NCBI RefSeq assembly: GCF_035084215.1
Contig: NC_090357.1
Span: 9,052,001 to 9,116,000, forward strand
Origin: Heptranchias perlo
Taxonomy: Eukaryota
Reading direction: 5' to 3'
DNA: 64,000 nucleotides
Positions 1,069-62,600 of the stretch are shown here, piece by piece (the first letter of the stretch is position 1; every line of letters starts with the position of its first letter). The notes below the pieces were generated by a model, which was not told the DNA's origin, made no database searches, and saw only the letters and a list, made by a program, of their open reading frames with translations. The position numbers were made by a program, and so were the translations under genes.

Positions 1069-4000
1069 CAAACACAACGTAGGCCTGTTACACTTCTGAC
1101 ACACTTTCCCCAATTTTGCAACGCTGGAGGGGGGGGCGCGGTGGGAGGTACTGACGGCACAAACCGCACACCCAACATATGCTTTTACCGGGTTTTTCTT
1201 TTCAGCTTTGGGAGTTGACTTCTGGCTTTTAATGCTTTTCTCAGGCTCCTCTTCAAGGATCTCATCTACAACAAAACAAATGGATAGAGGGGTGAATGTG
1301 CACACCAACAACAGCAAGTTGCATTTATATAGCACCTTTGATGTAATAAAATGTCCCAAGGCGCCTCACAGGAGCATAATCAGACAAAAAAATTGACACC
1401 AAGCCAAAGAAGGCGACATTACGACATGTGACCAAAAGGATGGTGGACGAAGGGAGTCGGGGATGCGTAAGAGGCCAGGATAGGAGAAACGCAGAGTTCT
1501 CGTAGGGTTGTAGGGCTGGAGGCAGTTACAGAGATAGGGAGGGGTGAGACCACGGAGGGATTTCAACAAGAGGATGAGAATTTTAAAATCAAGTCGTTTG
1601 GGAACCAGGAGTCAACGTAGATCAGCGAGCATAGGGGTGATGAGTGAACAGGACTTGGTGCGAGTCGGGATACGGACAGCACGAGTTTTAGATGAGCTCA
1701 AGTTTATGGTGGGTGGAAGATGGGAGGCCGGCCAGCAGAGCATTGGAATAGCTGAGTCTGGATGTAGCAAAAGCATCGAGGACGAACCAGACAGACCTCA
1801 GCTCATATACTTGTTCCTGCTCGCCCTGACTCCTTTCCTGATCTTCTGGGTTTGGTTCCATTCCTCCTGGCAGCCCTCCTTCACCTCATCCAAGGGGTCA
1901 TGTGTGACTCCAGACAGTATAGGCAGACTATTCGATTGTGTGGGAAATCATAGCCAACCTCAATCCTGTTCTTGCCCAACTGGAACATATGTATAACCTA
2001 CCAGTGGGGGCAGGAACCCCGACACAAAGGGTGGTAGAAGTTGGGAACTCTCTTCCGCAAACGGCAATTAATACTAGCTCAATTGCTAAATTTAAATCTG
2101 AGATACATAGCTTTTTGGCAACCAAAGGTATTAAGGGATATGGGCCAAAGGCGGGTATATGGAGTTAGATCACAGATCAGCCATGATCTTATCAAATGGC
2201 GGAGCAGGCACGAGAGGCTGAATGGCCTACTCTTGTTCCTATGTTCCTATGCTGTTACCCCCCCATAGTCCAGGAACTGCAGCACCCCCATCACGAGCTC
2301 AAGTGCAGCTGTGCATAGACCAGAAATCAGATCTGGATCCTTCCTGGTTTACGTAGCTCAGTTGCACACCAGATGCTACCTTTGCCTATAAGGCCATCGG
2401 GGGTGGGGGGTTGGAAGGGAACTGTTTCTATTGTTCAATCTCTAATCAGAAATCTCACCTACTTCTACCCAGTTTACACCATGAACTCCATGAATATCTC
2501 ATTCAGTTTGAGTCAGCGCTTAATGGACCCCCCAGGGTTTACACAGAGGGACTGCACGCAGTGAATTTCATGAGTCAGGAGGCATACAATGAACGGCCAA
2601 ACACCAGCTAAGCAGATGGGAGTTTCTAGCTTATTTTTTCACAAATGGGAGATGGAAAAATTCACGCAAGAAAAGTGATGGGAAAGTGCAAGAAACACAC
2701 AGACATAGACAGACAGACAGATAGAGAGAACAAACCAGAGAAAAGAAAAGCAATTGGAAAAGGAAGTGCGTGTGGCAGACATTTTTCTCCTCTGACTCAC
2801 CAAAAATCTCGTAGTTTTTTTCGGTTAAGTTATCAATCAGGTTTTCCCAGGCTGCCTGGAAAAGGAAACAAGGAAACAAGGCTAATGATTTTTCTATTCT
2901 TCCTCGACACTACTTCACTGGGCACCAAAATTCTTGATAAAAGGAAACTCCTTCTGCCATGGAGAATTCAAACCCGACACAGATTCACCTCATTCACTCA
3001 TGTAGCACTGAGCCTGCTTGTAAAGCCCATTTATTTTAAATGGGTTATCACCTCCATTAAAACAATGGGTTACCACCTCCATTAAAACAATGGGTTATCA
3101 CCTCCATTAAAACAATGGGTTACCACCTCCATTAAAACAATGGGTTATCACCTCCATTAAAACAATGGGTGGAGGAATGTCATATGAAAGTGTTAATTGT
3201 TCATCGGCTATTATGGCCAATAGTAATTTATAGCCCAACATCACGTTGCTCCAGAGGAAGCTTGAGATACCACTGATCGGGGCCCGGGGATAAGAGAAGA
3301 AGCCCGTGGACGCATCCCCCCCCTCCCCCCACCCCCCGCTCTGACTGCGGAGTGGGAGGAGGAAGTTGCAATCCCATTGTTCACGTCTGGATTGGGGCCT
3401 GGCCTGACTTTATGAAGGAGGAAATATTTTTCAAAGTTATCAAAGAAATTCAGACCTGATGAATCTAAAATTTACCTGGAATTCTTCCCCTCTGAAAACT
3501 CGGATTGCTTCGTGTCCTTCCAAAGATTGAAAATAATCACGGCCGTCGTCTGAGTCAGACACCAGCTCAGGCATGGGGCTGTCCTCGCCACTCAGGATGG
3601 TCCCCTTTTTACTGAATAAAGCGTAACAGGGAAAATAAAATAGGAACAGGACTGAACAATGACAGGAGAAAACGAGACATAGGAACATAGAAACAGGAGA
3701 CGACCATCCAGCCCCTCGAGCCTGTTCCGCCATTCAATTAGATCACGGCTGATGTGTATCTCAACCCCATTTGCCCGTCTTTGCTCCATATCCCTTGATA
3801 CCCTTACCGAACAAAAATCTATCAATCTCAGTCTGGTAAGGTTCAATTGACTCAGCATCCACAACCTTTTGGGGGAGAGAATTCTATTACCCTTTGTGTG
3901 AAGAAGTGCTTCCTGATTTAACTCCTCAATGGCCTGGCTCTAATTTTCTCAGGTCGCCCAAAATCAACTAAAACTTGGCGATAAGTCCCAGCAGCCCTGC

Positions 4001-10000: not shown

Positions 10001-12866
10001 GTGGCCATTTCTCCTTTGGCTGTTAAAAGTGAGAATTGCTGTCCTATAGCTCAGTTGGTAAATGCACTGATCAGTCATTTGTGCAAGATACTGGAACCAT
10101 ACAGACCAGGGAGTTCCCCAGTTCAATCTCCAGTTGTGTTGAACTAGCTGATCTCAGTCAGGACAAAGGTATGGATGCTACACAATTGGTCTCAGCACCC
10201 TTGGCTCAGGTCTCCCATCCATTTTTTGTGTGTGTGATTTAGGCCGCCCTTTTATAAGAAGTTGGGGGTGGGGCGGGAGTTAGGGTGTGTTTTTATTTAC
10301 AACAAATTATAAACCAAAATAAGTGTCAAATAATAATTTTATTATAATGATCCAGGATGCACTCCAGTCCCTGCGGTGCCCACCGGTCGCGGAAAGCCTC
10401 AAGCGTACCGGCAGACACCGCGTGCTCCCTCTCCAGGGCCACCCGGGCGCGGAGATTGCCGCAGAAGAGAGGCAAATCCCATCCTCATTGCTCTCCAGTG
10501 ACCTCTCCCGGAAAGTGTACGTGTGGGGACAGGACTGTGCTTGGCTCTGATCTCCCACGGGTTGAAGAGCCTATTAACATTCACCGTCTAGACTCATACA
10601 AGAAGAAAGGCCATTTTGGCAACATACCCACGGCATTGTAACCCAGCATCAGTCATCAGCTTCAATAAAATAATAGGAGAAATAAACATGGGCAATTTTT
10701 TTAAAAACTCAGAACCACGTTACTTAATGAAAGTTTCCCATCCGAAAAGCCAGCACCACTGTTAGACGGCCCTGCCGCTGAGTAAGAAAACACTGCAAGT
10801 CTTGTGAAAGTTGTAGAGAAAGCAAAGGCATATGTGCTTACCACAATAAGCAAGTTTGTAAGTGTGCATTATTGGTTCTGCATTATTGATCAGTCCCGTT
10901 CTTTCCCTGTTCGTTCTTCAGTCAAGAGGAACGGGTGTTCTGGACTGGACTCATCGGACCAGAGGCTTCTTCTAGGCCAAACTCAATGGTCAGCCCAGCC
11001 TGCCTCCAACACCCAGCTGCCCTCAATGGACAGCCCAGCCTGCCTCCAACACCCAGCTGCCCTCAATGGACAGCCCAGCCTGCCTCCAACACCCAGCTGC
11101 CCTCAATGGACAGCCCAGCCTGCCTCCAACACCCAGCTGCCCTCAATGGACAGCCCAGCCTGCCTCCAACACCCAGCTGCCCTCAATGGACAGCCCAGCC
11201 TGCCTCCAACACCCAGCTGCCCTCAATGGACAGCCCAGCCTGCCTCCAACACCCAGCTGCCCTCAATGGACAGCCCAGCCTGCCTCCAACACCCAGCTGC
11301 CCTCAATGGACAGCCCAGCCTGCCTCCAACACCCAGCTGCCCTCAATGGACAGCCCAGCCTGCTTCCAACACCCAGCTGCCCTCAATGGACAGCTCAGGC
11401 TGCTTCCAACACCCAGCTGCCCTCAATGGACAGCTCAGGCTGCTTCCAACACCCAGCTGCCCTCAATGGACAGCCCAGCCTGCCTCCAACACCCAGCTGC
11501 CCTCAATGGACAGCTCAGGCTGGCTCCATCGTTCTATGTTTTTTTCTCGTCTTGAGATTTTCCGTGCTTCATCCAGGCTTTGCTTATATCTTACGCTTCA
11601 ACAACACAGGAATTGCTAGACGAAAAGATCCACCTGGTTCGCCTTCTACTCTCCTGGTAGTCGCATGATACAACAATAATGGAGTTGTTGACTAATCATA
11701 GCAATCAATCTCTATCAATTGGTCTACAACAGATCCAGAAATAAAATAGAATCATAGAATGATACAGCAAAGGAGGAGGCCATTTGGCCCATCGTGCCTG
11801 TGCCAACTATTTGAAAGAGCTATCCAATTAGTCCCACTCCCCTGCTCTTTCCCCACAGCCCTGCAAATTTTTCCCCTTCAAATATTTATCCAATTCCCTT
11901 TTGAAAGTTGCTATTGAATCTGCTTCCACCACCCTTTCAGGCAGTGCATTCCAGATCATATCAATGCGCTACGTAAAAACAAAATTCCTCATGACACCTT
12001 TTTTTTGCCAATTACCTTAAATCTGTGTCCTCTGGTTATTGACCCTTCTGCTATTGGAAACAGTTTCTCCTTATTTACACTATCAAAACACTTCATGATT
12101 TTGTATCAAATCTCCTCTTAATCTTCTCTGCTCTAAGGAGAACAACCCCAGCTTCTCTAGTCTCTCTATGTAACTGAAGTCCCTTACCATTCTAGTAAAT
12201 CTCTTCTGCACCCTCTCTAAGGCCTTGACATCTTTCCTAAAGTGTGGTGCCCAGAATTTAAATGAGGCGAGGAAAATCCCAGTGGTGGAAAGATTTAGGA
12301 ACCTCGGTCCAAAGTCACCTGTTCCTCACAAAAACGCTGCACTTACCACATGTCATGTCTCAAATTACTCATATACTGTATAAAATATTCATCTCCAACA
12401 ACCCTCAAAAGGGTGAGTGTTGCTGATGTAAAATTATCCTACTATAAGCCAGGATAATTAAAGTGAATTGGAACAAACAACACAAAAAGGACCTCTGAAA
12501 GTTGCACTTCTTAAAAAAAAGTATGTCATAAGTTGCAGCCTCATAGAGAAGGGAACTTACAGTGTGCCAGCAGGATTGTAAGGGCTGTGTTCCTCTGGAG
12601 ATCTGTCCACTGAGGGGCTATATTGTCAATAGGAATTTGTTTTATTAAAGGCTTTGTACAGCAGATGATCTCTTTCAGTTCAGAGTCGTCCTAGAGAGAA
12701 GGCACAAGAAATAAATTGTAAATTCCCCTTTGTTAGGAATAAGCTCTCGTTCCCCCAAAGACTCGTGTCACCAAGGCAAGGATGGTGCAATTGGCTGCCG
12801 CAAACCTTGGGGATGGGAATGGTAAAAACCAGCCATGGTCATTACTCCTTATCACTTTCCAGCTTC

Positions 12867-25758: not shown

Positions 25759-26712
25759 AGTGTAGAAATTTACAGATGTTTAAAGGTGCTGATTCTTTTG
25801 CCCCAGCGAGGGGCGGTTTGGATCCCGCGAAAGGGTACGGGATTCTCACGGATAATGACCATTCACAGGTGCATTCAGGAAATCTCCCCATTTCCCATAT
25901 GGCCAGTCTATCCTGGTCCCAGCACAGTAGCAACTTGTGCTTCTAGTGACTGACCTAGATCGGAATTACTAGTAAGGAGGACAGGTCCAGATACTCAAAC
26001 TCTCTGAAATATGCTGGGATATGAAAAATAAAATCTAGAGGCAGGAACATAGAGGAAGTAAGATTGGTCTGAGCATCTTTCCTGCCAGTTTCTGGCGGGC
26101 TTTCCCTGCACAGTATTCATTCCTGATTCATTTCAAGCTGCAGGCAAAACCCTTCAAAAATATCACCACTGACTAGTTGCCCATCCACAACATCAGTCGA
26201 ATGACTGGTGGTGCTCAGGGCAGACATATAGATTAACCAAGGACACGTCTCCCAATCAATCGCCGCAAACAGCAAGCGGACTAAGATCAACGTTTAGCAG
26301 ACACATGGAGGATTAAGGCCCCTTTCCCTGGAATTCTAACTGTGCTTCTCCGTCAGAATCCTCCCCTGCTCCTTCTCAAACCATTTTGGGAAACCGTATC
26401 GGATAATTAAAAAATATATAGAATGGTTTTCAGACGGTTACGTGTCGCCTGGTAAAAAGGCTGAACAATTCTACACTTCAAAAATGACAACTTAAGTTTT
26501 TTTTGGGGGGGTGGGTCCCAGATTGTAACCGAATTACGATCTACATCCGTTTGGCTGGAATGTTACAGCAGAGCATCGCAGGGGGGGGAAACAAGTCCGA
26601 AAACAGGTGTCGTTACATGTGGGCAACGTGTCCGATGCCTTTTGTTTTTTTTCGCTTATTTCACACGCGGGAAGACGAAGCGATCGCAGATGTTGCCCTT
26701 TTCCCACCGCTC

Positions 26713-27334
26713 GCTACAATGTATCAGCCGGGGGTCTGCTACAATGTATCGGCCGGGGGTTCGCTACAATGTATCAGCCGGGGGGGTTCGCAACAATGTA
26801 TCAGCCGGGGGTTTGCTACAATGTATCAGCCGGGGGGTTCGCCACAATGTATCAGCCGGGGGTTCGCTACAATGTATCAGCCGGGGGTTTGCTACAATGT
26901 ATCAGCCGGGGGGTCTGCTACAATGTATCAGCCGGGGGTCCGCTACAATGTATCAGCCGGGGGTTCGCTACAATGTATCAGCCGGGGGGTCTGCTACAAT
27001 GTATCAGCCGAGGGTTTGATACAATGTATCAGCCGGGGGGGATCGCTACAATGTATCAGCCGGGGGGGTTCGCAACAATGTATCAGCCGGGGGTTTGCCA
27101 CAATGTATCAGCCGGGGGTTTGCTACAATGTATCAGCCGGGGGGGGTTCGCTACAATGTATCAGCCGGGGGGTTCGCTACAATGTATCAGCCGGGGGTTT
27201 GCTACAATGTATCAGCCGGGGGTCTGCTACAATGTATCAGCCGAGGGTTTGCCACAATGTATCAGCCGGGGGTTTGCTACAATGTATCAGCCGGGGGAAC
27301 GCTACAATGTATCAGCCGGGGGGTTTTGCTACAA
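26713..27334. repeat. Minisatellite, 24 copies plus a partial copy of a 25-28 bp unit GCTACAATGTATCAGCC(G)5-8TTY
   Basis: Direct reading. The core ACAATGTATC is invariant, while the G-run length and flanking bases vary. Confidence 0.95.
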
Positions 27335-27745
27335 ACGGCGCGTCGACGCTTTGAAATGAACCAACCTCGGTCGCTCACGATACGTGGCTGTGACTTTGCC
27401 CACCGATGTCTCTCCCTCTCTCTCTCTCTCCTTCCGATCCTACGAAAGGGGGAAAAAAACTCACACACATTGGTACTGAAGCTATCGCGAGCGTTGGCCT
27501 CTTCCGCGCAAAAAAGACATTTAAAGGGTCATTGTACCTTTGAGAAATTGTTGAGAAACCCCAATGTGCTACATCTCCCAATATTTTCTAATCATTATTA
27601 TTATTTTTTTAATCTGTATGCTTTTGTGTGGCATTTTGAAATGTTACTCAATAGATTTAATTATGGTCTACAGACTGAAATGAGAACGCGATTTGCAATG
27701 TGCTTTACCTGCCTGCCAGCTCTCCCCCCTCACCACAAGTGTGTT

Positions 27746-27865
27746 GTCATGATGTGGAGATGCACCACGGTGATGGACTGGGGTGGACAAATGTAAGGAA
27801 TCTTACACCACCAGGTTATAGTGCAACAGTTGGACTATAACCTGGTGTTGTAAGATTCCTTACAA
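27746..27865 (-). mobile_element. Penelope-related short inverted-repeat element
   Basis: GATGTGGAGATGC...GATGGACTGGGGTGGACAAATGTAAGGAATCTTACA...GGACTATAACCTGGTGTTGTAAGATTCCTTACA. Related to 47230-47430 and 52690-52760. Confidence 0.7.
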
Positions 27866-28114
27866 GTGTGTTGTGTATAAGGGTTGATATTGCTTATCGT
27901 TCTGGTCAGTTTTATAATTCATATGGAGGCCAGTTTAAAAGGTACACGGACAAAATGTAGCGTCACCAGTGTGATTTGTTCAAAAAGGAAGTTTAGAATA
28001 ACTGAGTTCTGATGAGATTACCTTAACTAACTTTCTGTTTCATATGCTGACTAGCATCCTGTTTATTGCCAACATCTGTTCTTATCTCAGATTACCAGCA
28101 TTTTCAATTTATTT

Positions 28115-28575
28115 CAATTGGCTCACGGTCCATCAAATTTTAAAATTCTCACCCTTGTCTTCAAATCCCTCCAGGGCCTCACCCGTCCCTATCACTGTAA
28201 CCTCTCCCAGCTCTACGACCCTCCGAGAACTCTGCGTTCCTCCAACTCTGGCCTCGTGTGCATCTCCCACTTCCTTCGCCCCACCAGCGGCGGTCCTGCC
28301 TTCAGCCATCTAGACCTGAAGCTCTGGAATTTGCTCCCGAAACCTCTCCGCCTTTCCCTCCTCCTTTAAGACTCTCCTTAAAACCTACCTTTTTATATAT
28401 TTTTTTCTTTTTTAGGCTCCCCCCCCCCGCCTTAAAACCTACCTCTTTTGACCAAGCTTTATAGTCACCTGTCCTAATGTCTCCTTTTTTTGACTCGGTG
28501 TCAATATTTTTGTTTGATAACACTCCTGTGAAGCGCCTTGGGACGGTAAAGGCGCTATGTAAATGCAAGTTGTGG
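28115..28575 (+). mobile_element. L2-type LINE 3' end
   Basis: ORF FKILTLVFKSLQGL...LRSSNSG...AFSHLDLKLWNLLP, with the 3' tail GCGCTATGTAAATGCAAGTTG. Confidence 0.75.
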
Positions 28576-28589
28576 TCGCTGTTGACTTT

Positions 28590-28800
28590 GGTCATCCGCC
28601 GCAGAGGGCGCTGTGCGGCGGGACACCGGACGGTGCCCATCGCCCAGGGCTCTTAAAGGCGATGGTTCTTCGCGACCTCCCCTTTAATGATTTCGCCGAC
28701 TTTTAATGAGCCTCTGTTAGGCGTCGGCGGTTTTGTGATGTGAGCGGGTTGGGTGACTGCTCGAGTGTCCGAACCCGAGTCCCGGGGCTTCGGCCTCCCG
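28590..28800 (+). promoter_or_regulatory. CpG-rich CENATAC promoter/5'UTR with a CTCF-like motif
   Basis: GC/CpG-rich stretch directly before ATG 28801. GCCGCAGAGGGCGCTG at 28598-28613 resembles the CTCF core. Confidence 0.5.
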
Positions 28801-31800
28801 ATGGGTAACAACAAGAAAAAGAAGAAGAAGAAGAGGGTGGCGGCGGAGGCGGCGCCGGGGGCAGCGTTTTACTGCGAGGTTTGCAGACAGACTTTCTTCG
28901 GCGGCCGGGGACATGTTTACGGGCTGAAGCACCAGGAGAGGCTCGGGGCGCTGCTAGGCCGCTTCTTGCAGAAGGTAATGAGGGGAGGAGGGGAGAGAGA
29001 GAGAGACCCTGGGACAGGGGGCTGGGAGATAGACCGCTCTTAAAGGCGCTGTGTCTGCGAATAAACAGGTGGCAGGTGGTTTTTTTTTGTGTGGGGAAGG
29101 GGCTGCTCCTGGTCTGTCAGCTGCTGAAAGGGTTTTGACTCCAATCTGCCCCAACTGAGCTGTGTTTGTCAACAACAGGAAAATGCTATTTTTTTTCATG
29201 AAGGCATTGCCCCTTTTAAAAGGTCTTCTGCTGTGTAAACATAACCCTATATATATAACCCTATATTCCACATCGTTCACCTGAGGAAGGAGGTAGCCTC
29301 CGAAAGCTTGTGAATTTAAAATAAAATTGCTGGACTATAACTTGGTGTTGTAAAATTGTTTACAATTATATATATATATATATATATACACACACAAACA
29401 CACACACGGAAACAATTACTTCAATTGACTCCAATTTATACCTTGCAATTCACCTAGGAGAATCTTGGCTCACCTGTGCCAACTCTGGATGTTAATGGAA
29501 CCCTGCAGACTGCACTATTGCAAACAGGGTAATGAGACACTGCCCCCAAGACTATTGCAACATCACAAGCTGCTGTAGGTGATACAGGATCCCCATCGGT
29601 AAATTGGGAGATTAATAATTTATATGAACTGCTCACGAAGGTACCACATAGTCTTTGTATTACATTTGTCAAAAAGGAATTTAATTTTCTTTCTTCCTTC
29701 CCCCCCCCCCCCGCCACCATGGAATTGGTCCATCCTTCCTCTAGTTCAGATGGTGATCGACCTGAGCCTGTAATATCTGTCATTATTTGCCACTGCGATA
29801 TGCCACCTATAAATTGGCATGCACGTGTAATCCGAGCTTGCAATGTGCAAAATTACAACATCGACAAGATGCTCTAAGCATCAGTCCACTTGTGTTCATT
29901 TTACCTACCTTTGAAGGTGAGACACTCTCACTTTTTTAAGGTATCTTTCTCTTCTATTCCTACTTGATCTGCCAATTTTTGACATCTCTGGTTACATTTT
30001 ACTTTTTTCCTTCTTCTCTCCTGAAGCCATTGGCTCCTTGCTGGTGTCTCCTTCACGGATGGCAGTGGCCATTATTCATTCATAAGCCCTGACAGTCTGT
30101 GTTGGTAAGCTATTTGACTGCAAGGGGCACCACATATGAACCCAAGCCCTTCCTTGCAAGACAAATACGGACAAACACACGCACTTGAAGCAGAGGCAAG
30201 GTAGCTGGATAATTATTAGCAGCAGGAACCTGATTAATTTTCCTCCTGCACCTCGGGGGCACTGAGGCCAACTGTAGCATCCCTATCATCACTCCAGATG
30301 AGATCAGCTTACTCAGCACAGAGTAGGGAATGATATTTGGAGCTTCCTAATCTCTGTGGCTCAACCATTAACTGGATAAACTCACCGAGCCATCGGGGAA
30401 GCCTGTTTCTATCTTGTGTGATGGCTGAGAGGGCAGGGTCACCAGGTCCCGCACCTTTGTCAGAGTCTCTCTGAAATGGGCCAATCAGAGTTGTGTAAGA
30501 CAATGCTGTGCCTCAGCTAAAACTGGCAATTCAGTGTGTATGCGCGCACTTTCTGTTTCTAAAAGGAATAAGCAAGTCCATGGTGGTAGAATTGCAACAT
30601 TAGTGATCCTATCATCAATACTGCCAAAAAAACAATCGCAGCTAATTCAACAACATCTTTAAGAACGTATGCAGTTATGTTGGTAATTGGAGTCAGATAC
30701 AGAAGGGCACACAGTGATTGATTTTTTTTCTTTATTATGTAACAAATGTTGGACAGTGCATCTGTTTTGAAAAAAAAATTGTATTTCTAAATTATTCTAT
30801 AACTGATGTCTACGAGCAGTGGGTTTCATTCCATTGAGTGACATCAGCCAGCAGTAAAAATCCGACCACTGCCTACTGGGGCCTCAAGTCACAAGCTGTA
30901 ATCGGGCTCAGCCATTCACTCTTTTTAACCTTCAGGATATAATCAAAACCACCACTTTTAGTGTTCAGATTATAATTGATAAATATTATCCCAGAGCTTA
31001 CAGAAAGAAGTGACCTTGATGCCTTCCAGCTCTGGGTTTTGTACAGCATAGTTGCACACTTCACTTACATTTGGGATAACAGTTTACCATTGTGGCCAGT
31101 ACCTGAAATTCTTTACACTGTACAATCTACTCTTAATTTGAAGTTTCTAAATTGAAATGTCAGTTAATTGAAATCATGCACAAAACAACATCTGTGCTGT
31201 TTTGTTAAAATTCAAGCCATTGGAAAATTTGATTTTTTTTTCAAGCAAAAAAAAAGTAGATTGTGAGGGTGGTGGCATTCCTGAAAGCTCCTACGTCAAT
31301 GTTACTTCAATCAATTTGCACCCGGTTACAAGGTCGTTATTCACCCGTGTGTCTATTGAATTTAGGTCAACAGGATCTATTCTTATTAACTAATAGAGAA
31401 TAACACAATGTTATAATTCGAGCTCATGCCAGATATTCTCTTATGCCTGGTGTAAAAAGTCTATAGGCAAGCCCTCATCTGTCTGAACCGAAATGTGCCC
31501 TTCTCTTCGAAGTAATCTGGGACAGCAGGCCGTAGGGTGAACAATGAATTGTTGTCACCGTTCATCCTTTACTGTTGAGATCCCAAATGATTTCTTGGGT
31601 ACCTTATCAGATGCTCAATCTCTTTGACTGACCACACTGATGAAGGTAAGACTTAGAATAAAAACTACACATCAAGTTTATGAAGAAGTAAACTGTGTGG
31701 ATAGTCACGGGTGTGAAGCTCCATCTTGTACTCCATAATGTTGTTATCACTTCCATTCATCCCCATCTCTGCTGCCTTCCTCAGTGTGAAAACATTTAGC

Positions 31801-54644: not shown

Positions 54645-56043
54645 TTTTTATTCGTTCATGGGATGTGGGCATCGCTGGCGAGGCCGGCATTTATTGCCCA
54701 TCCCTAATTGCCCTTGAGAAGGTGGTGGTGAGCCGCCTTCTTGAACCGCTGCAGTCTGTGTGGTGAAGGTTCTCCCACAGTTCTGTTAGGAAGGGAATTC
54801 CAGGATTTTGACCCAGCGACGATGAAGGAACGGCGATATATTTCCAGGTCGGGATGGTGTCTGACTTGGAAGGGAACGTGCAGGTGGTGTTGTTCGCATG
54901 TACCTGCTGCTCTTGTCCTTCTAGGTGGTAGAGGTCGCGGGTTTGGGAGGTGCTGTCGAAGAAGCCTTGCCGAGTTGCTGCAGTGCATCCTGTGGATGGT
55001 ACACACTGCAGCCACTGTGCGCCGGTGGTGAAGGGAGTGAATGTTTAGGGTGGTGGATGGGGTGCCAATCAAGCAGGTTGCTTTGTCCTGGATGGTGTCG
55101 AGCTTCTTGAGTGTTGTTGGAGCTGCACTCATCCAGGCAAGTGGAGAGCATTCCATCACACTCCTGACTTGTGCCTTGTAGATGATGGAAAGGCTTTGGG
55201 GAGTCAGGAGGTGAGTCACTTGCCGCAGAATACCCAGCCTCTGACCTGCTCTTGTAGCCACAGTATTTATATGGCTGGTCCAGTTAAGTTTCTGGTCAAT
55301 GGTGACCCCCAGGATGTTGATGGTGGGGGATTCGGCGATGGTAATGCCATTGAATGTCAAGGGGAGGTGGTTAGACTCTCTCTTGTTGGAGATGGCCATT
55401 GCCAGGCACTTGTCTGGCGTGAATGTTACTTGCTACGTATGAGCCCAAGTCTGGATGTTGTCCAGGTCTTGCTGCATGCGAGCTTGGACTGCTTCATTAT
55501 TTGAGGGGTTGCGAATGGAACTGAACACTGTGCAATCATCAGCGAACATCCCCATTTCTGACCTTATGATGGAGGGAAGGTCATTGATGAAGCAGCTGAA
55601 GATGGTTGGGCCTAGGACACTGCCTTGAGGAACTCCTGCAGCAATGCCCTGGGGCTGAGATGATTGGCCTCCAACAACCACTACCATCTTCCTTTGTGCT
55701 AGGTATGACTCCAGCCACTGGAGAGTTTTCCCCCTGATTCCCATTGACTTCAACTTTACTAGGGCTCCTTGGTGCCACACTCGGTCAAATGCTGCCTTGA
55801 TGACAAGGGCAGTCACTCTCACCTCACCTCTGGAATTCAGCTCTTTTGTCCATGTTTGGACCAAAGCTGTAATGAGGTCTGGAGCCGAGTAGTCCTGGCG
55901 GAACCCAAACTGAGCATCAGTGAGCAGGTTATTGGTGAGTAAGTGCTGCTTGATAGCACTGTCGACGACACCTTCCATCACTTTGCTGATGATTGAGAGT
56001 AGACTGATGGGGCAGTAATTGGCTGGATTGGATTTGTCCTGGA
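54645..56043 (-). mobile_element. CR1/L2-group LINE fragment with RT domain (degenerate)
   Basis: ORFs contain NYCPISLLSIISKVME, AAFDRVWHQ, GVPQGSVLGPTIFSCFINDL, FADD and LGVTIDQKLNW. The reading frame is broken near 55430. Confidence 0.9.
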
Positions 56044-56665
56044 TCTTGTGTTGCAAACAATGTAAAGCGGTTCTGATGAATCACTCTACACTGATCAAAA
56101 TGCAATTCATTCCCTTCCTCTTCCACAGTCAGTGACTCATTTTAAGGTACAGTTCCATGTTACCTCTCGCAAGTATTCATTCTTTATGCGCAAGTCCACG
56201 GGGTGAGTGTCGGCAGGTATCGGGAGCATCACAGCTAATGCCAATCCAGTCCAGACTTCATGTGCACACAGGTGCGCTTTCCATTAAGTGTCACAGGACT
56301 TGGAACTCTAGCCAATAATTCCCCCTCATTGGTCCAAGGGTACTGAAGTCATCCAGAGCACCTCATTCATTCATGGACTGAATGTGAGATCTGCCTGGTC
56401 TGTGTAGCTCAATACCTTGTGAGTTTCACTCCCTAGGCAATGGGATGTAGAGCAAATCAATGTATGGTTTGAGCTCATAATCCAGATTGACAATCCAGTG
56501 CATTACTGAGGCAATGTTGCACTTTTGAAGGTGTTGTCCTTCGGATGAGATGTTAAACTGAGGTCCTGTCTGTTGGTTGTAGTGAATTCTAGGCTTCCAT
56601 GGTGCTATCTGAAGAGAAGCAGGGATTCATCCCAATGTCCTGAGCAACACTTCTCCCTCAACCCT

Positions 56666-57605
56666 TCGTCGTCCAGTACTTCTCCGGAGCGGAGAAACTA
56701 CGCCATGTTCTCCGCAGCCTTCAACATGTCATCAATGATGACGAACACCTCGCTATGGCCATCCCCACACCTCCACTACTCGCCTTTAAACAGCCACCCA
56801 ACCTCAAACAAACCATCGTTCGCAGCAAATTACCCAGCTTTCAGGAGAACAGCGTCCACGACACCACACAACCCTGCCACGGTAACCTCTGCAAGACATG
56901 CCAGATCATCGACACAGATACCACCATCACACGAGAGGACACCACCCACCAGGTGCACGGTTTATACTCCTGTGACTCGGCCAACGTTGTCTACCTCATA
57001 CGTTGCAGGAAAGGATGCCCCAGAGCATGGTACATTGGCGAGACCATGCAGACGCTGCGACAACGGATGAACGGACACCGCGCAACAATCGCCAAACAGG
57101 AGGGTTCTCTCCCTGTCGGGGAACACTTCAGCAGTCAAGGACATTCAGCCACCGACCTTCGGGTAAGCATACTCCAAGGCGGCCTTCGAGACACACGACA
57201 ACGCAAAATCGTCGAGCAGAAATTGATAGCCAAGTTCTGCACCCATGAGGATGGCCTCAACCGGGATCTTGGGTTCATGTCACACTACACGTAACCCCAC
57301 CAGCGAACAAATGTTATCTGTTTTTAATACAACGGGTCATTGACTGTCTTCCTTCTCTCTCTCTTTTTTTTGGGGGGTTTGTATATTCGGTGGCCTTTTA
57401 GGTGACACCTTTCTGTCTGCTCACTGTGATTGCCTTGGCAACGGGCAGTAATCACCAGGCATTGTTCTGTGATTTTCAAATGCGAAGGATTCGAAAATTT
57501 CATTTCCATACCGTTCACCTGAGGAAGGAGGAAGCCTTCGAAAGCTTGTGGAATTTAAAATAAATTTGTTGGACTATAACTTGGTGTTGTAAAATTGTTT
57601 ACAAG
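56666..57605 (+). mobile_element. Penelope-like element 3' portion with GIY-YIG endonuclease and pLTR
   Basis: ORF 56755-57294: PPLLAFKQPPNLKQTIVRS...CKTC...CDSANVVYLIRCRKGC...YIGETMQTLRQRMNGHR...VGEHF...GLNRD. It is inserted in a SINE. Confidence 0.9.
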
Positions 57606-59415: not shown

Positions 59416-59539
59416 CCTACAGAGCACTCAGTGCAATTGATTTGTGTGAAATGTTTCAAGATGCCTCCTTGACCATGTGATGTACAAGCTGCTCCTTTAA
59501 GGGGGAGGAGGGGGGGGAGGGGCAGGTGCGCGCGGTGCG

Positions 59540-59605
59540 CTCTGGGAGTTGTAGGCGCTCTATTGCGCAGCTGCGGGGAGGGGGGAGGGACTACATTTCC
59601 CAGCG
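59540..59605. promoter_or_regulatory. TRAPPC4 promoter with two opposed ZNF143/SBS motifs
   Basis: CTGGGAGTTGTAG at about 59542-59554 (reverse complement CTACAACTCCCAG) and GGACTACATTTCCCAGC at about 59588-59604 match ACTACAnnTCCCA. The context is CpG-rich. Confidence 0.75.
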
Positions 59606-59633
59606 TTCCCCCCCCCCCGCGCGCGGCGCAGTG

Positions 59634-62600
59634 ATGGTGGTTTTCAGCGTCTATGTGGTGAATAAGGCCGGCGGCCTGGTTTACCAGTACGACAACTACT
59701 CGCCCCGCTCCGACGTGGAGAAGACCTTCAGCTACCCGCTGGACCTGGTGCTGAAGGTGTACGACGAGCGGGTGGTGGTGGCTTTCGGTCAGAGGGACGG
59801 TATCAAAGGTGAGGGCAGGCCGGGGAACAGAGCGCTGATGGCGGCGGCGGCTGCTGCTAGGAAACGTCCCCCGTACGACTGGGGCCTAGCCCAGGCAATT
59901 GGGCGTTGAAGTGACACAGAAAAAGAGGTTTTAAACAATGCCCCTGGCTGTTGCTTTTACAGCAGCTATTGTCAAGTTGACATTCACAACTGTGAGTCAG
60001 TCAGACGTTCATACATCTTAGAAAGAAAATGGTACATTGCATTTCATTAATTATCCTTTAGCCGTCACATATCTCTAATAGATTCCAAGATTTCTTTTAA
60101 AAAATCTGTCAAGGGTGGGTGGAACTTGAGATGGAAATTGGGAAGATGTGTCAGTGCCAAGTCTCCATCATCATCATCATCAACAACCCAACCCAACCCA
60201 ACCCACAGATGGAGCTCTGCATCTGTAGCGATAGATTTGAGTTAGTTTGGACATAAGTGTTTGGATTGTTTAATGTATAGTAATGGTAATATTGCACCGA
60301 GACCTGAATCTGTATCTAGGCTTTGTGTGTTTGGGTATTTTAGTTGTTTGCGAGGAAGCAGCTCTATTAAATACTTGCTCTATTTTTATGGATTGTTCCT
60401 TTCTCTCCTGAAGGTGCTGACTTGTCGGTTTGCTCCATGGGTGTCATTTGCTTTCTAGTTCCCCATTGCAGTGGTTGTCTTCATGGATGAGTCTAGACTT
60501 TCTATGTCAGTGTGGCATCACGACCAGTGTCAGTTCCTGTCCTTGCCTAACATTCACACATATGTATTTCCAGCAGCGGCATTGGATATTAATCAGCAGT
60601 AGTTCACTCTCCCTGCCCCCAATTCAGAGGCACTGAGGCCAGTTTTAGCTACTGCCACCCTACTGAGCTCAGCAAACTCAGTACAAACTGGGGAGCAAAA
60701 CAGATGTAACTTTTTTTGCCTTCATTCCCCGCTCCTCCAATGAATGGGTATCAGGAGGGATACAAATGGGCTCTGGGGATAAATGGCAAAACAGAGTGGA
60801 GGAAGATGTTGTGATGAGATGTTAAACCGAGGCCTGTCCGCCTGTTCAGGTGGCTGTAATACATCTCATGCCATCTCATTTGAAGAATAATAAGGAGTCT
60901 GCCAGTGTCCTGGCCAACGTTTATCCCAAAACTGACATCACTTTAAAAAAAAATTGGTCATTATCTCATTGCTGTTTGTGGGACCTTTTGCTGTGCACTA
61001 ATTAGCTGCCACATTTGCGAATGTAACAACGGTGAGTACACTTCAGAAGTTATTAATTGACTGAAGTGCTTTGGGACATCTGAAGATATAAAAGGTGCCA
61101 TATAAATACAAGTTTGTTCTTTCTATAAATGTAAGTTCTTCTGCATCAGCACAGCTGTAAGACCTAGCACTCTATTTCTCTTGAGTTTTTCCATGTACCA
61201 AGCACCTGTCATGGTCAAGAGGAGTCCTACATTTATGTAAATGTAACTTTAATTTTACAGTTCAAATGTAGATTTTGTTACTGTTCATACCAGCAAGCCA
61301 CATGGTAATTATTCTTAAAAGTACTTCTGCTGGCTGCAGAATTTTAAACTATTTTTACTGACCTGTGAGTCTAACTATTTGTGTGTTTAAGCTTTGAATA
61401 CTATTGCTTTGGTGTTTCAATTTTACATTCTTTCTGCTTTTTTCCCAGTCGGATATGCTGTGCTTTCAATTAATGGGATTGATGTAAATGGAAGGTACAT
61501 GACTGATAACAGGGACGTGATGGAGTATCTGAATACCTCTTTCAATTACCCTTTGGCAATTCGCTTTGGACGTCCTCGTCTGACGTCGAATGAGAAATTA
61601 ATGTTGGCATCCATGTTTCATTCGTAAGTTTTGTAACAGCAAAAAAAACCTGATTTTTAGAATTGCTGGTGTTTCACATGGACAGTGAGATGAATGGTCG
61701 GATAATCTGTTTTCTTTTGGTACTGGTTGACGGAAGAATGCTGGCCAGGACACCCAGAGAAACACCAGCTCTTTTTCAAGTAATAGGATGAGATCTTTAC
61801 TATCTATCTGGACTATGGTACTTGGGATGCATTTTCTTGTTACTCTGCTGGTGGTTGTTATACTATTTTGTTGTATTTTTGGCCCCCTAAAAATTAGCCT
61901 CTTAGTTCAAATAATTATAGATTTGGTGAGCCCTGTCTTCAGCACCTGGAATTTTGAAAATAGGACTGTTACAGGTCACAAAATAGGTTTGAATGAGGAA
62001 GGCCCTTCTGTCCATTTGATCTTAGTCTTCTAGAATACCTGCTCCCCTGTTTTCCTGTTAAAGCCTTAATGTCCATCTCAACATGTAGGACCTCTGTTTC
62101 ATATCTCGTCCGAAGGATAATGCCTCCAAAAGTGCAACACTTCCTCAGTGCTGCACTAGAATGCCAGCCTAGATTATACACTTGGGCCCTGATATGGGGC
62201 TCAAACTTTCCACCTTCTGACCAGAAGTGAGAGTGCTGCCCTTTGAGTGGTAGTATGTCCATCTAACCCTACAATTACCCACTGGCTCCATTATCAGTCT
62301 CAACTGTGCCTCTTGAGAAGACCAGGCACTTCCCCAGACAGCCAGTTACCTCAATTTGTTCTTGTGTAGCAGCATTGATGGAGGTCTGAGAGCAAGTTTC
62401 TAGCCCATTCTTACCCCTGAAGAAGATGCAGTGAGATGTCTTTATTAAACTGCCAAAGTAAAGAGTGATGTTAGCTGGAAACAACAATGACTGTTATGAA
62501 TTTGTCACTTTAAGAGGACTTGTTGCATCTCCGATGGTGGTGACCGAGGGTTAATTTGAATGCTGTGAGAAGCATGTGCTGATAATTGAATGTTGCCATT

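Follow-up and report, generated by a model that had tools for sequence, protein, structure and literature searches.

A minisatellite of 24 DMRT-type sites in a promoter-type CpG island near the 5' end of a TTC3-like gene of the shark Heptranchias perlo

The response element of DMRT1 has been described as a 13-bp inverted repeat that has G at position -6 and favours a particular base at -8; reporters containing one or four copies of such a site are driven by DMRT-VP16 (PMC1931443). DMRT1 can open chromatin, and its motif overlaps that of Sertoli SOX9 (PMC8216462). In juvenile gonads of the bamboo shark Dmrt1 is male-biased, while it was undetected in the primordia (PMC12318234). Tandem repeats can also gather many copies of one motif. 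The human repeats IFNB1-MRE and TWIST2-MRE hold 45 and 26 SPI motifs and have been shown to function, and in the same study of MORC3 only two of the restricted repeats (53 are plotted) activated neighbouring genes (PMC13373173). In spermatogonia, a mutational bias adds tandem copies to binding sites, through insertions of 5-20 bp at NRF1, PRDM9 and CTCF sites; for the DMRT motif family in human spermatogonia, 7 insertions were observed against 4 expected, which was not significant (p 0.093) (PMC8559717). In medaka, the Izanagi transposon, present in 28 copies, supplies a Dmrt1 site to the dmrt1bY promoter (PMC2820524). No natural tandem array of DMRT sites was found among listings of open-licence papers.

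In this paper we describe such an array in a stretch of 64,000 nucleotides from H. perlo, referred to below as the window. The array (Table 1) is a minisatellite of period 25 with 24.3 copies and 89% matches by TRF, and unit parsing resolves it into 24 full units, the number given by the first-pass annotation, each of 25-28 bp, and a partial 25th, GCTACAA. Each unit combines a DMRT-type pseudo-palindrome of 13 bp with AGCC, a run of 5-8 G and a triplet that varies. The 10-mer ACAATGTATC is invariant, as had been noted: all 24 units have it, and it is absent from the rest of the window on both strands. The 13-mers begin with GCT in 18 units, GCC in 3, GCA in 2 and GAT in 1; the pattern RNWACAWTGTWNY, earlier said to suit most units, fits 21 of the 24, with no match in the window outside the array. 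The spacer had been described as freely varying, which did not hold: GCC-G and the three G that end the run are invariant as well, and variation between units comes to 9 distinct minor alleles in 6+1 of the 25 columns, together with G-run length. Neighbouring unit pairs recur (units 3-4 equal 14-15 and units 11-12 equal 20-21), which indicates growth by block duplication, and the anatomy of the array agrees with the suggestion that a single ancestral site was amplified. A search of positions 24000-30000 gave no Rfam matches. Long open reading frames across the array were rejected as a gene, since a stop-poor repeat yields such frames and RNA-type contig depth here is 0.

Each unit is identical at 12-13 of 13 positions to the core of a DMRT1 or DMRT2 gel-shift probe published in PMC1931443. 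Eighteen units match both probe cores at 12 of 13 positions, and exact matches are found in 3 of 24 (two units to the DMRT1 core and one to the DMRT2 core); the three GCC units match the DMRT1 core at 12 of 13 and are one base off the consensus. Scoring relied on patterns and published probe cores rather than on a measured weight matrix. The strict pseudo-palindrome with a central A/T, GHWACAWTGTWDC, gives 21 exact and 3 one-mismatch matches in the array, so that all 24 units fit when one mismatch is allowed, and 4 one-mismatch matches in the rest of the window, against 2.9 expected in shuffles. The G at -6 that DMRT1 requires is present in every unit in both orientations. At -8 the probes carry T, from which we take T to be the preferred base, whereas all 24 units, read in the orientation of the probes, have C there; read the other way round, 18 of them have T. 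A SOX core, CATTGT, lies inside the 13-mer in all units. Judged against the published probe cores, the units are DMRT-type sites and the earlier identification is sound; binding is what we infer from it.

The left flank of the array holds further DMRT-like sequence. There are six half-sites in the 313 bp of the left flank where 1.2 are expected, a number reached by 0 of 202 control blocks, in a test that was chosen post hoc and used the half-site pattern GHWACA. The plus-strand half-sites at 26562, 26588 and 26612 lie roughly in the 25-bp phase of the array. Single alignments to the unit, one for each flank, were borderline (4% and 1% of control blocks, in 4 tests), but a tandem-query test of the flanks as decayed units was null, with 76% and 52% of shuffles scoring as high, and this origin of the flanks was rejected.

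The array is a minisatellite within a promoter-type CpG island near the 5' end of a TTC3-like gene, which bears out the setting proposed for it. Its flanks are each CpG-rich on their own, as had been stated, with CpG observed/expected ratios of 1.13 on the left and 1.16 on the right against 0.39 for the window. High-copy repeats (DNA contig depth about 2e5, bins 27272-28599) part this island from that of CENATAC. DNA contig depth, which is not equivalent to copy number and for which some repeats were skipped, is 17 in the array bin, 17-32 in single-copy bins and 1e5-1e6 in repeat bins. The contigs under the two immediate flanks are at half depth, 5-7; one of these contigs has 2 differences and a gap, and no contig spans the array. 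In a second organism (run X9) the array had no contig cover, which is uninformative about conservation. The array is likely to be at a single locus, and the many genomic loci that a dispersed satellite would occupy were not seen in the depth of its bin, which is like that of single-copy bins.

Table 1. Positions in the window of the array, its surroundings and the control repeats, with the basis for each
Feature	Position	Strand	Basis or description
Intronic minisatellite, TTC3-like gene, control	3039-3170		25 bp x 5.3; TRF
Intronic minisatellite, TTC3-like gene, control	10982-11528		40 bp x 13.7; TRF
Second coding exon, TTC3-like gene	21970..22132	-	tblastn P0001 100%; RNA-type contigs X5 record 11, X6 record 23
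34-nt exon with annotated start codon (23071)	23050..23083	-	P0001 starts MKSSISAEEM; splice sites
Candidate 5' exon, donor GGAT/GTAAGC	25695..25760	-	donor rank 2nd in 25.5-27.7 kb
Alternative 5'-exon region, donor CTAG/GTCAGT at 25955	25955..26607	-	top donor score
CpG island holding the array	26501..27540	.	CpG o/e
Six DMRT-like half-sites (GHWACA), no full site	26524..26696	.	pattern scan, left flank
Minisatellite, 24 units and partial 25th	26713..27334	.	TRF and unit parsing
CENATAC-start CpG island	28091..29100	.	CpG o/e; distinct from array island
First exon of CENATAC (CCDC84), ATG at 28801	28682..28976	+	Pfam CCDC84 E 1.7e-10; RNA-type contig X5 record 15

The TTC3-like gene is on the minus strand at 466-23083, leaves the window at its left end and encodes a TPR/HEPN/RING protein, a TTC3/DZIP3-like E3 ligase. 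The exon used for searching is 100% identical by tblastn to a DZIP3-like record of H. perlo (P0001), which has close relatives in other sharks and rays. Cartilaginous-fish proteins, or a close match, make up 13 of 15 matches, the remaining 2 being distant TTC3 proteins, and a single-exon search of 1.84 billion representatives returned a strong match to P0001 only. There is weak evidence that the gene is restricted to cartilaginous fishes, and it may be an unnamed TTC3 paralogue. Open-licence papers yielded nothing on the expression of this paralogue, and one supplement of PMC12318234 has no entries for TTC3, DZIP3 or CCDC84. FOXR1, considered as another candidate for a germ-line target, neighbours CCDC84 in bony vertebrates and was reported as not found in chondrichthyans (PMC6109588); in the window the TTC3/DZIP3-like gene occupies its place beside CCDC84. 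The TTC3-like transcript was present in both of the RNA-type runs examined, out of 4 listed; if the two runs come from different tissues, this would oppose strict germ-line restriction. Runs X7 and X8, which had small shares, were left out of the analysis.

The array had been placed about 1 kb upstream of the exon with the start codon. The annotated ATG is in fact 3,642 bp away, and it is a candidate 5' exon that lies at about 1 kb. The second coding exon begins at positions 90 and 100 of the RNA-type contigs that carry it, so that an additional 5' exon would have 55-65 nt. The depth of these RNA-type contigs is 2.3 and 18 in the bin 25944-26607 and 0 in the array bin. Among the matches listed, 4 of 12 relatives start with MKTVTM or MKSVTM, five residues ahead of the MKSS start of the H. 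perlo protein, and a candidate exon that ends in GGAT and not in ATG would explain this shift; with ATG at the donor, the exon would yield the start seen in those relatives. With donors ranked by a splice matrix, a 5' exon ending at 25695 is plausible, and the distance from the array down to the 5' end of the gene is probably 0.1-1 kb. The ATG near 25758 was rejected as a coding start, because the exact splice join (T+AA) makes a stop. A small CpG-rich patch with what we take to be a GC box (25812-25818) lies about 55 bp upstream of the candidate exon at 25,760.

On the other side of the array the CENATAC start is 1,467 bp away, close to the 1.5 kb given for it earlier. CENATAC is a component of the minor spliceosome (PMC8280824). 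Further to the right, a start in a CpG island at 59440-59800 has no Pfam match and is presumably TRAPPC4-like; this would agree with the ccdc84-rps25-trappc4 synteny described in PMC6109588. Retroelement-like open frames cluster at 50500-57300. Some of these we take to be reverse-transcriptase-like and others GIY-YIG-like.

The 24 sites descend from one seed, so that they are one observation copied and not 24 independent matches. For a random 25-mer, the probability of containing a strict site is 3e-5 to 6e-5, and that of containing the pattern of the first-pass annotation is 3e-4. Taken with the density of comparable arrays, which is 2-3 per 64 kb by TRF in one window, this gives a rough chance rate of about 1-3 strict-site arrays per Gb, or 10-15 with the looser pattern. 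A promoter position lowers the rate perhaps 30-100-fold by our estimate; a chance origin nevertheless stays plausible, because any of dozens of known motifs would have caught the eye of a reader. As to constraint, only one of the 9 minor alleles disrupts the consensus, and the other two that fall within the 13-mer yield published probe cores. Simulated mutation leaves at most one disruptive allele with a probability of 0.02-0.05 if 9 events are counted, and of 0.08-0.17 if two variants are discounted and 7 remain; for an invariant run of at least 10 at any place the probability is 0.08-0.26. Longer invariant runs, of 24 and 25 bp, are present in the two control arrays of the window. The invariant core leans to constraint as weak evidence of selection, and is within chance for a young array.

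The same 13-mer was also found elsewhere. Metagenome contigs scanned for two tandem copies gave 2 stretches, both from one marine assembly, in which a 20-bp AT-rich unit with the identical 13-mer is repeated in 9 and 10 copies. The stretches are at contig ends (L001 1-193 and L002 999-1197) beside apparent small exons, and probably belong to a single intronic array of an animal, seen from its two sides; arrays of the DMRT word would thus arise outside CpG-island promoters too. The two-copy pattern gave 0 stretches in 185,579 prokaryote genomes and 6 in viruses, each a single two-copy match. The marine array fits either chance or DMRT sites that are prone to duplication in the germ line, and one case cannot tell these apart.

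The explanation that we favour, tentatively and at somewhat less than even chances, is that a promoter DMRT site was amplified by minisatellite turnover and is now a homotypic DMRT enhancer of the TTC3-like gene in the gonad. On this view the minisatellite is young, confined to one locus and part of the promoter region that the CpG island gives this gene. It would have begun when one 25-bp promoter segment with a predicted high-affinity DM-domain site was duplicated, and would then have expanded by the ordinary slippage and block duplication to which its anatomy points. In cells that express DM-domain proteins, above all DMRT1 in juvenile and adult testis, the open island would give DMRT dimers access to many of the units. 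The cluster of occupied sites would then form a homotypic enhancer and shift the expression of the TTC3-like gene, which is the nearer of the two, while CENATAC would be driven mostly from its own island. Amplification need not have been selected. The parts of this explanation differ in strength: the match of the sites makes occupancy by DMRT1 or a paralogue likely wherever one is expressed, a measurable effect on the TTC3-like gene may well exist but falls a little short of probable, and a selected, copy-number-tuned role for the array is unlikely.

Several lines of evidence agree with amplification into a DMRT enhancer. Every unit is near identical to a probe core, a strict site is rare in random 25-mers, reporters respond to as few as one copy of the site, 2 of the 3 variant alleles within the 13-mer retain the consensus, and the array has both a promoter position in a CpG island and additional half-sites in its left flank. 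In published work, juvenile bamboo sharks express Dmrt1 with a male bias in their gonads (PMC12318234), a tandem repeat of 26-45 homotypic motifs can serve as an enhancer (PMC13373173), and mutation can add tandem copies at spermatogonial binding sites (PMC8559717). However, the signal of selection fades once two variants are discounted, the control arrays have longer invariant runs, chance alone yields a few strict-site arrays per Gb, and the identical 13-mer is found in the intron-like array of the animal-like marine contig pair. The base at -8, which is important for DMRT1 (PMC1931443), is C throughout in the probe orientation, and the TTC3-like transcript appears in 2 of 2 RNA-type runs. 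The precedents too are limited, in that few of the restricted repeats in the MORC3 study activated their neighbours (PMC13373173) and the DMRT motif family was not significantly insertion-prone (PMC8559717). It is nearly as likely that the array is a neutral promoter minisatellite that contains a DMRT word by chance, perhaps bound incidentally in testis and leaving expression unaffected. This would suit the single seed and the chance rate, the marginal constraint, the presence of two further minisatellites in the same 64 kb, the unrelated marine array, and the commonest triplet variants, which are C-to-T before G as decay of CpG would give; it would also agree with the finding that most motif-rich repeats have no general regulatory activity (PMC13373173). 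A purely neutral repeat fits less well with a seed match that is near perfect and lies within a promoter island, with in-site variants that lean to consensus-compatible bases and with the extra half-sites of the left flank.

Other explanations give the array a different function or origin. It might be regulatory through SOX proteins on the CATTGT core, which is in all units and is in keeping with the overlap of the DMRT1 and Sertoli SOX9 motifs (PMC8216462), or through a zinc-finger protein of GC-box or ZIC type on the CAGCCGGGGG half of the unit. This half we take to be ZIC/KLF-like. A 6-bp SOX core, however, carries far less information than the full 13-bp palindrome, and at many sites SOX9 needs DMRT1 in order to bind (PMC8216462), so that we consider action through such factors improbable. 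The first-pass annotation had also raised a DMRT sink and G-quadruplex formation by the G-runs, both of which we regard as very improbable. A density of 24 sites in 620 bp and a G-run of 5-8 in each unit speak for them, but 24 sites are negligible beside the 3,295 and 2,616 DMRT1-bound regions of one mouse comparison (PMC8216462). Canonical quadruplex patterns matched nowhere in the array when loops were limited to 7 or 12 nt, and matched only with loops of 20-25 nt; mean G4Hunter is 0.64 and the best 25-nt window reaches 1.2, a value attained by 2.3% of positions in the window, and loops of about 20 nt with so low a mean make a G-quadruplex unlikely. Membership in a dispersed satellite or transposon with DMRT sites has a precedent in Izanagi, whose Dmrt1 site is carried by a transposable element (PMC2820524), but it is equally remote in view of the low contig depth of the array and its flanks and of the lack of a second copy in the window.

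If the array is functional, it would connect the rapid mutation that minisatellites undergo with the DMRT pathway of sex differentiation, which is conserved, would be the first direct DMRT target candidate in a shark, where gonadal regulation is barely mapped, and would point to an unstudied TTC3/DZIP3-like ligase as a gonad gene. In a stronger form, which we hold to be unlikely, a conserved cartilaginous-fish site would have expanded in this lineage into a selected, length-polymorphic DMRT rheostat whose repeat number sets the output of the TTC3/DZIP3 paralogue in testis or germ line. Such a rheostat would be an example from nature of a tandem-repeat enhancer that serves a sex-regulatory factor and, together with the marine array, would hint that minisatellites have been seeded by DMRT words more than once in the germ lines of animals. 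If the array is neutral, it warns that 24 repeats of a perfect motif amount to a single event and not to 24.

Compared with known systems, the units share with the DMRT1/DSX response element (PMC1931443) the 13-bp inverted repeat, the central A/T and the G at -6, whereas the shark array has 24 natural tandem copies at a spacing of 25-28 bp and a -8 base that fits in one orientation only. Like the enhancers IFNB1-MRE and TWIST2-MRE (PMC13373173), it is a tandem repeat with tens of homotypic motifs; those are human repeats with SPI, AP-1 and SP-KLF motifs, whereas the shark repeat has a DM-domain motif in a CpG-island promoter and a function that is predicted. In the MNS16A promoter VNTR of TERT, which contains GATA1 sites, the number of sites is likewise set by the number of units (PMC5438627); length polymorphism and activity were shown there and are predictions for the shark array. 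As in the homotypic clusters of spermatogonia (PMC8559717), a bound motif that was duplicated in open chromatin of the germ line could have seeded the array without selection, although the insertions there are 5-20 bp and the shark unit is 25 bp. Izanagi (PMC2820524) resembles it in that repetitive DNA brings a DMRT site to a promoter, but has one site per dispersed element, while the shark array is tandem, apparently at a single locus and devoid of transposon features. The layout of regulatory VNTRs, in which tandem units each carry a motif for the same factor near a gene start, is found here as well, and on its anatomy the shark array belongs with the promoter minisatellites that multiply one factor site.
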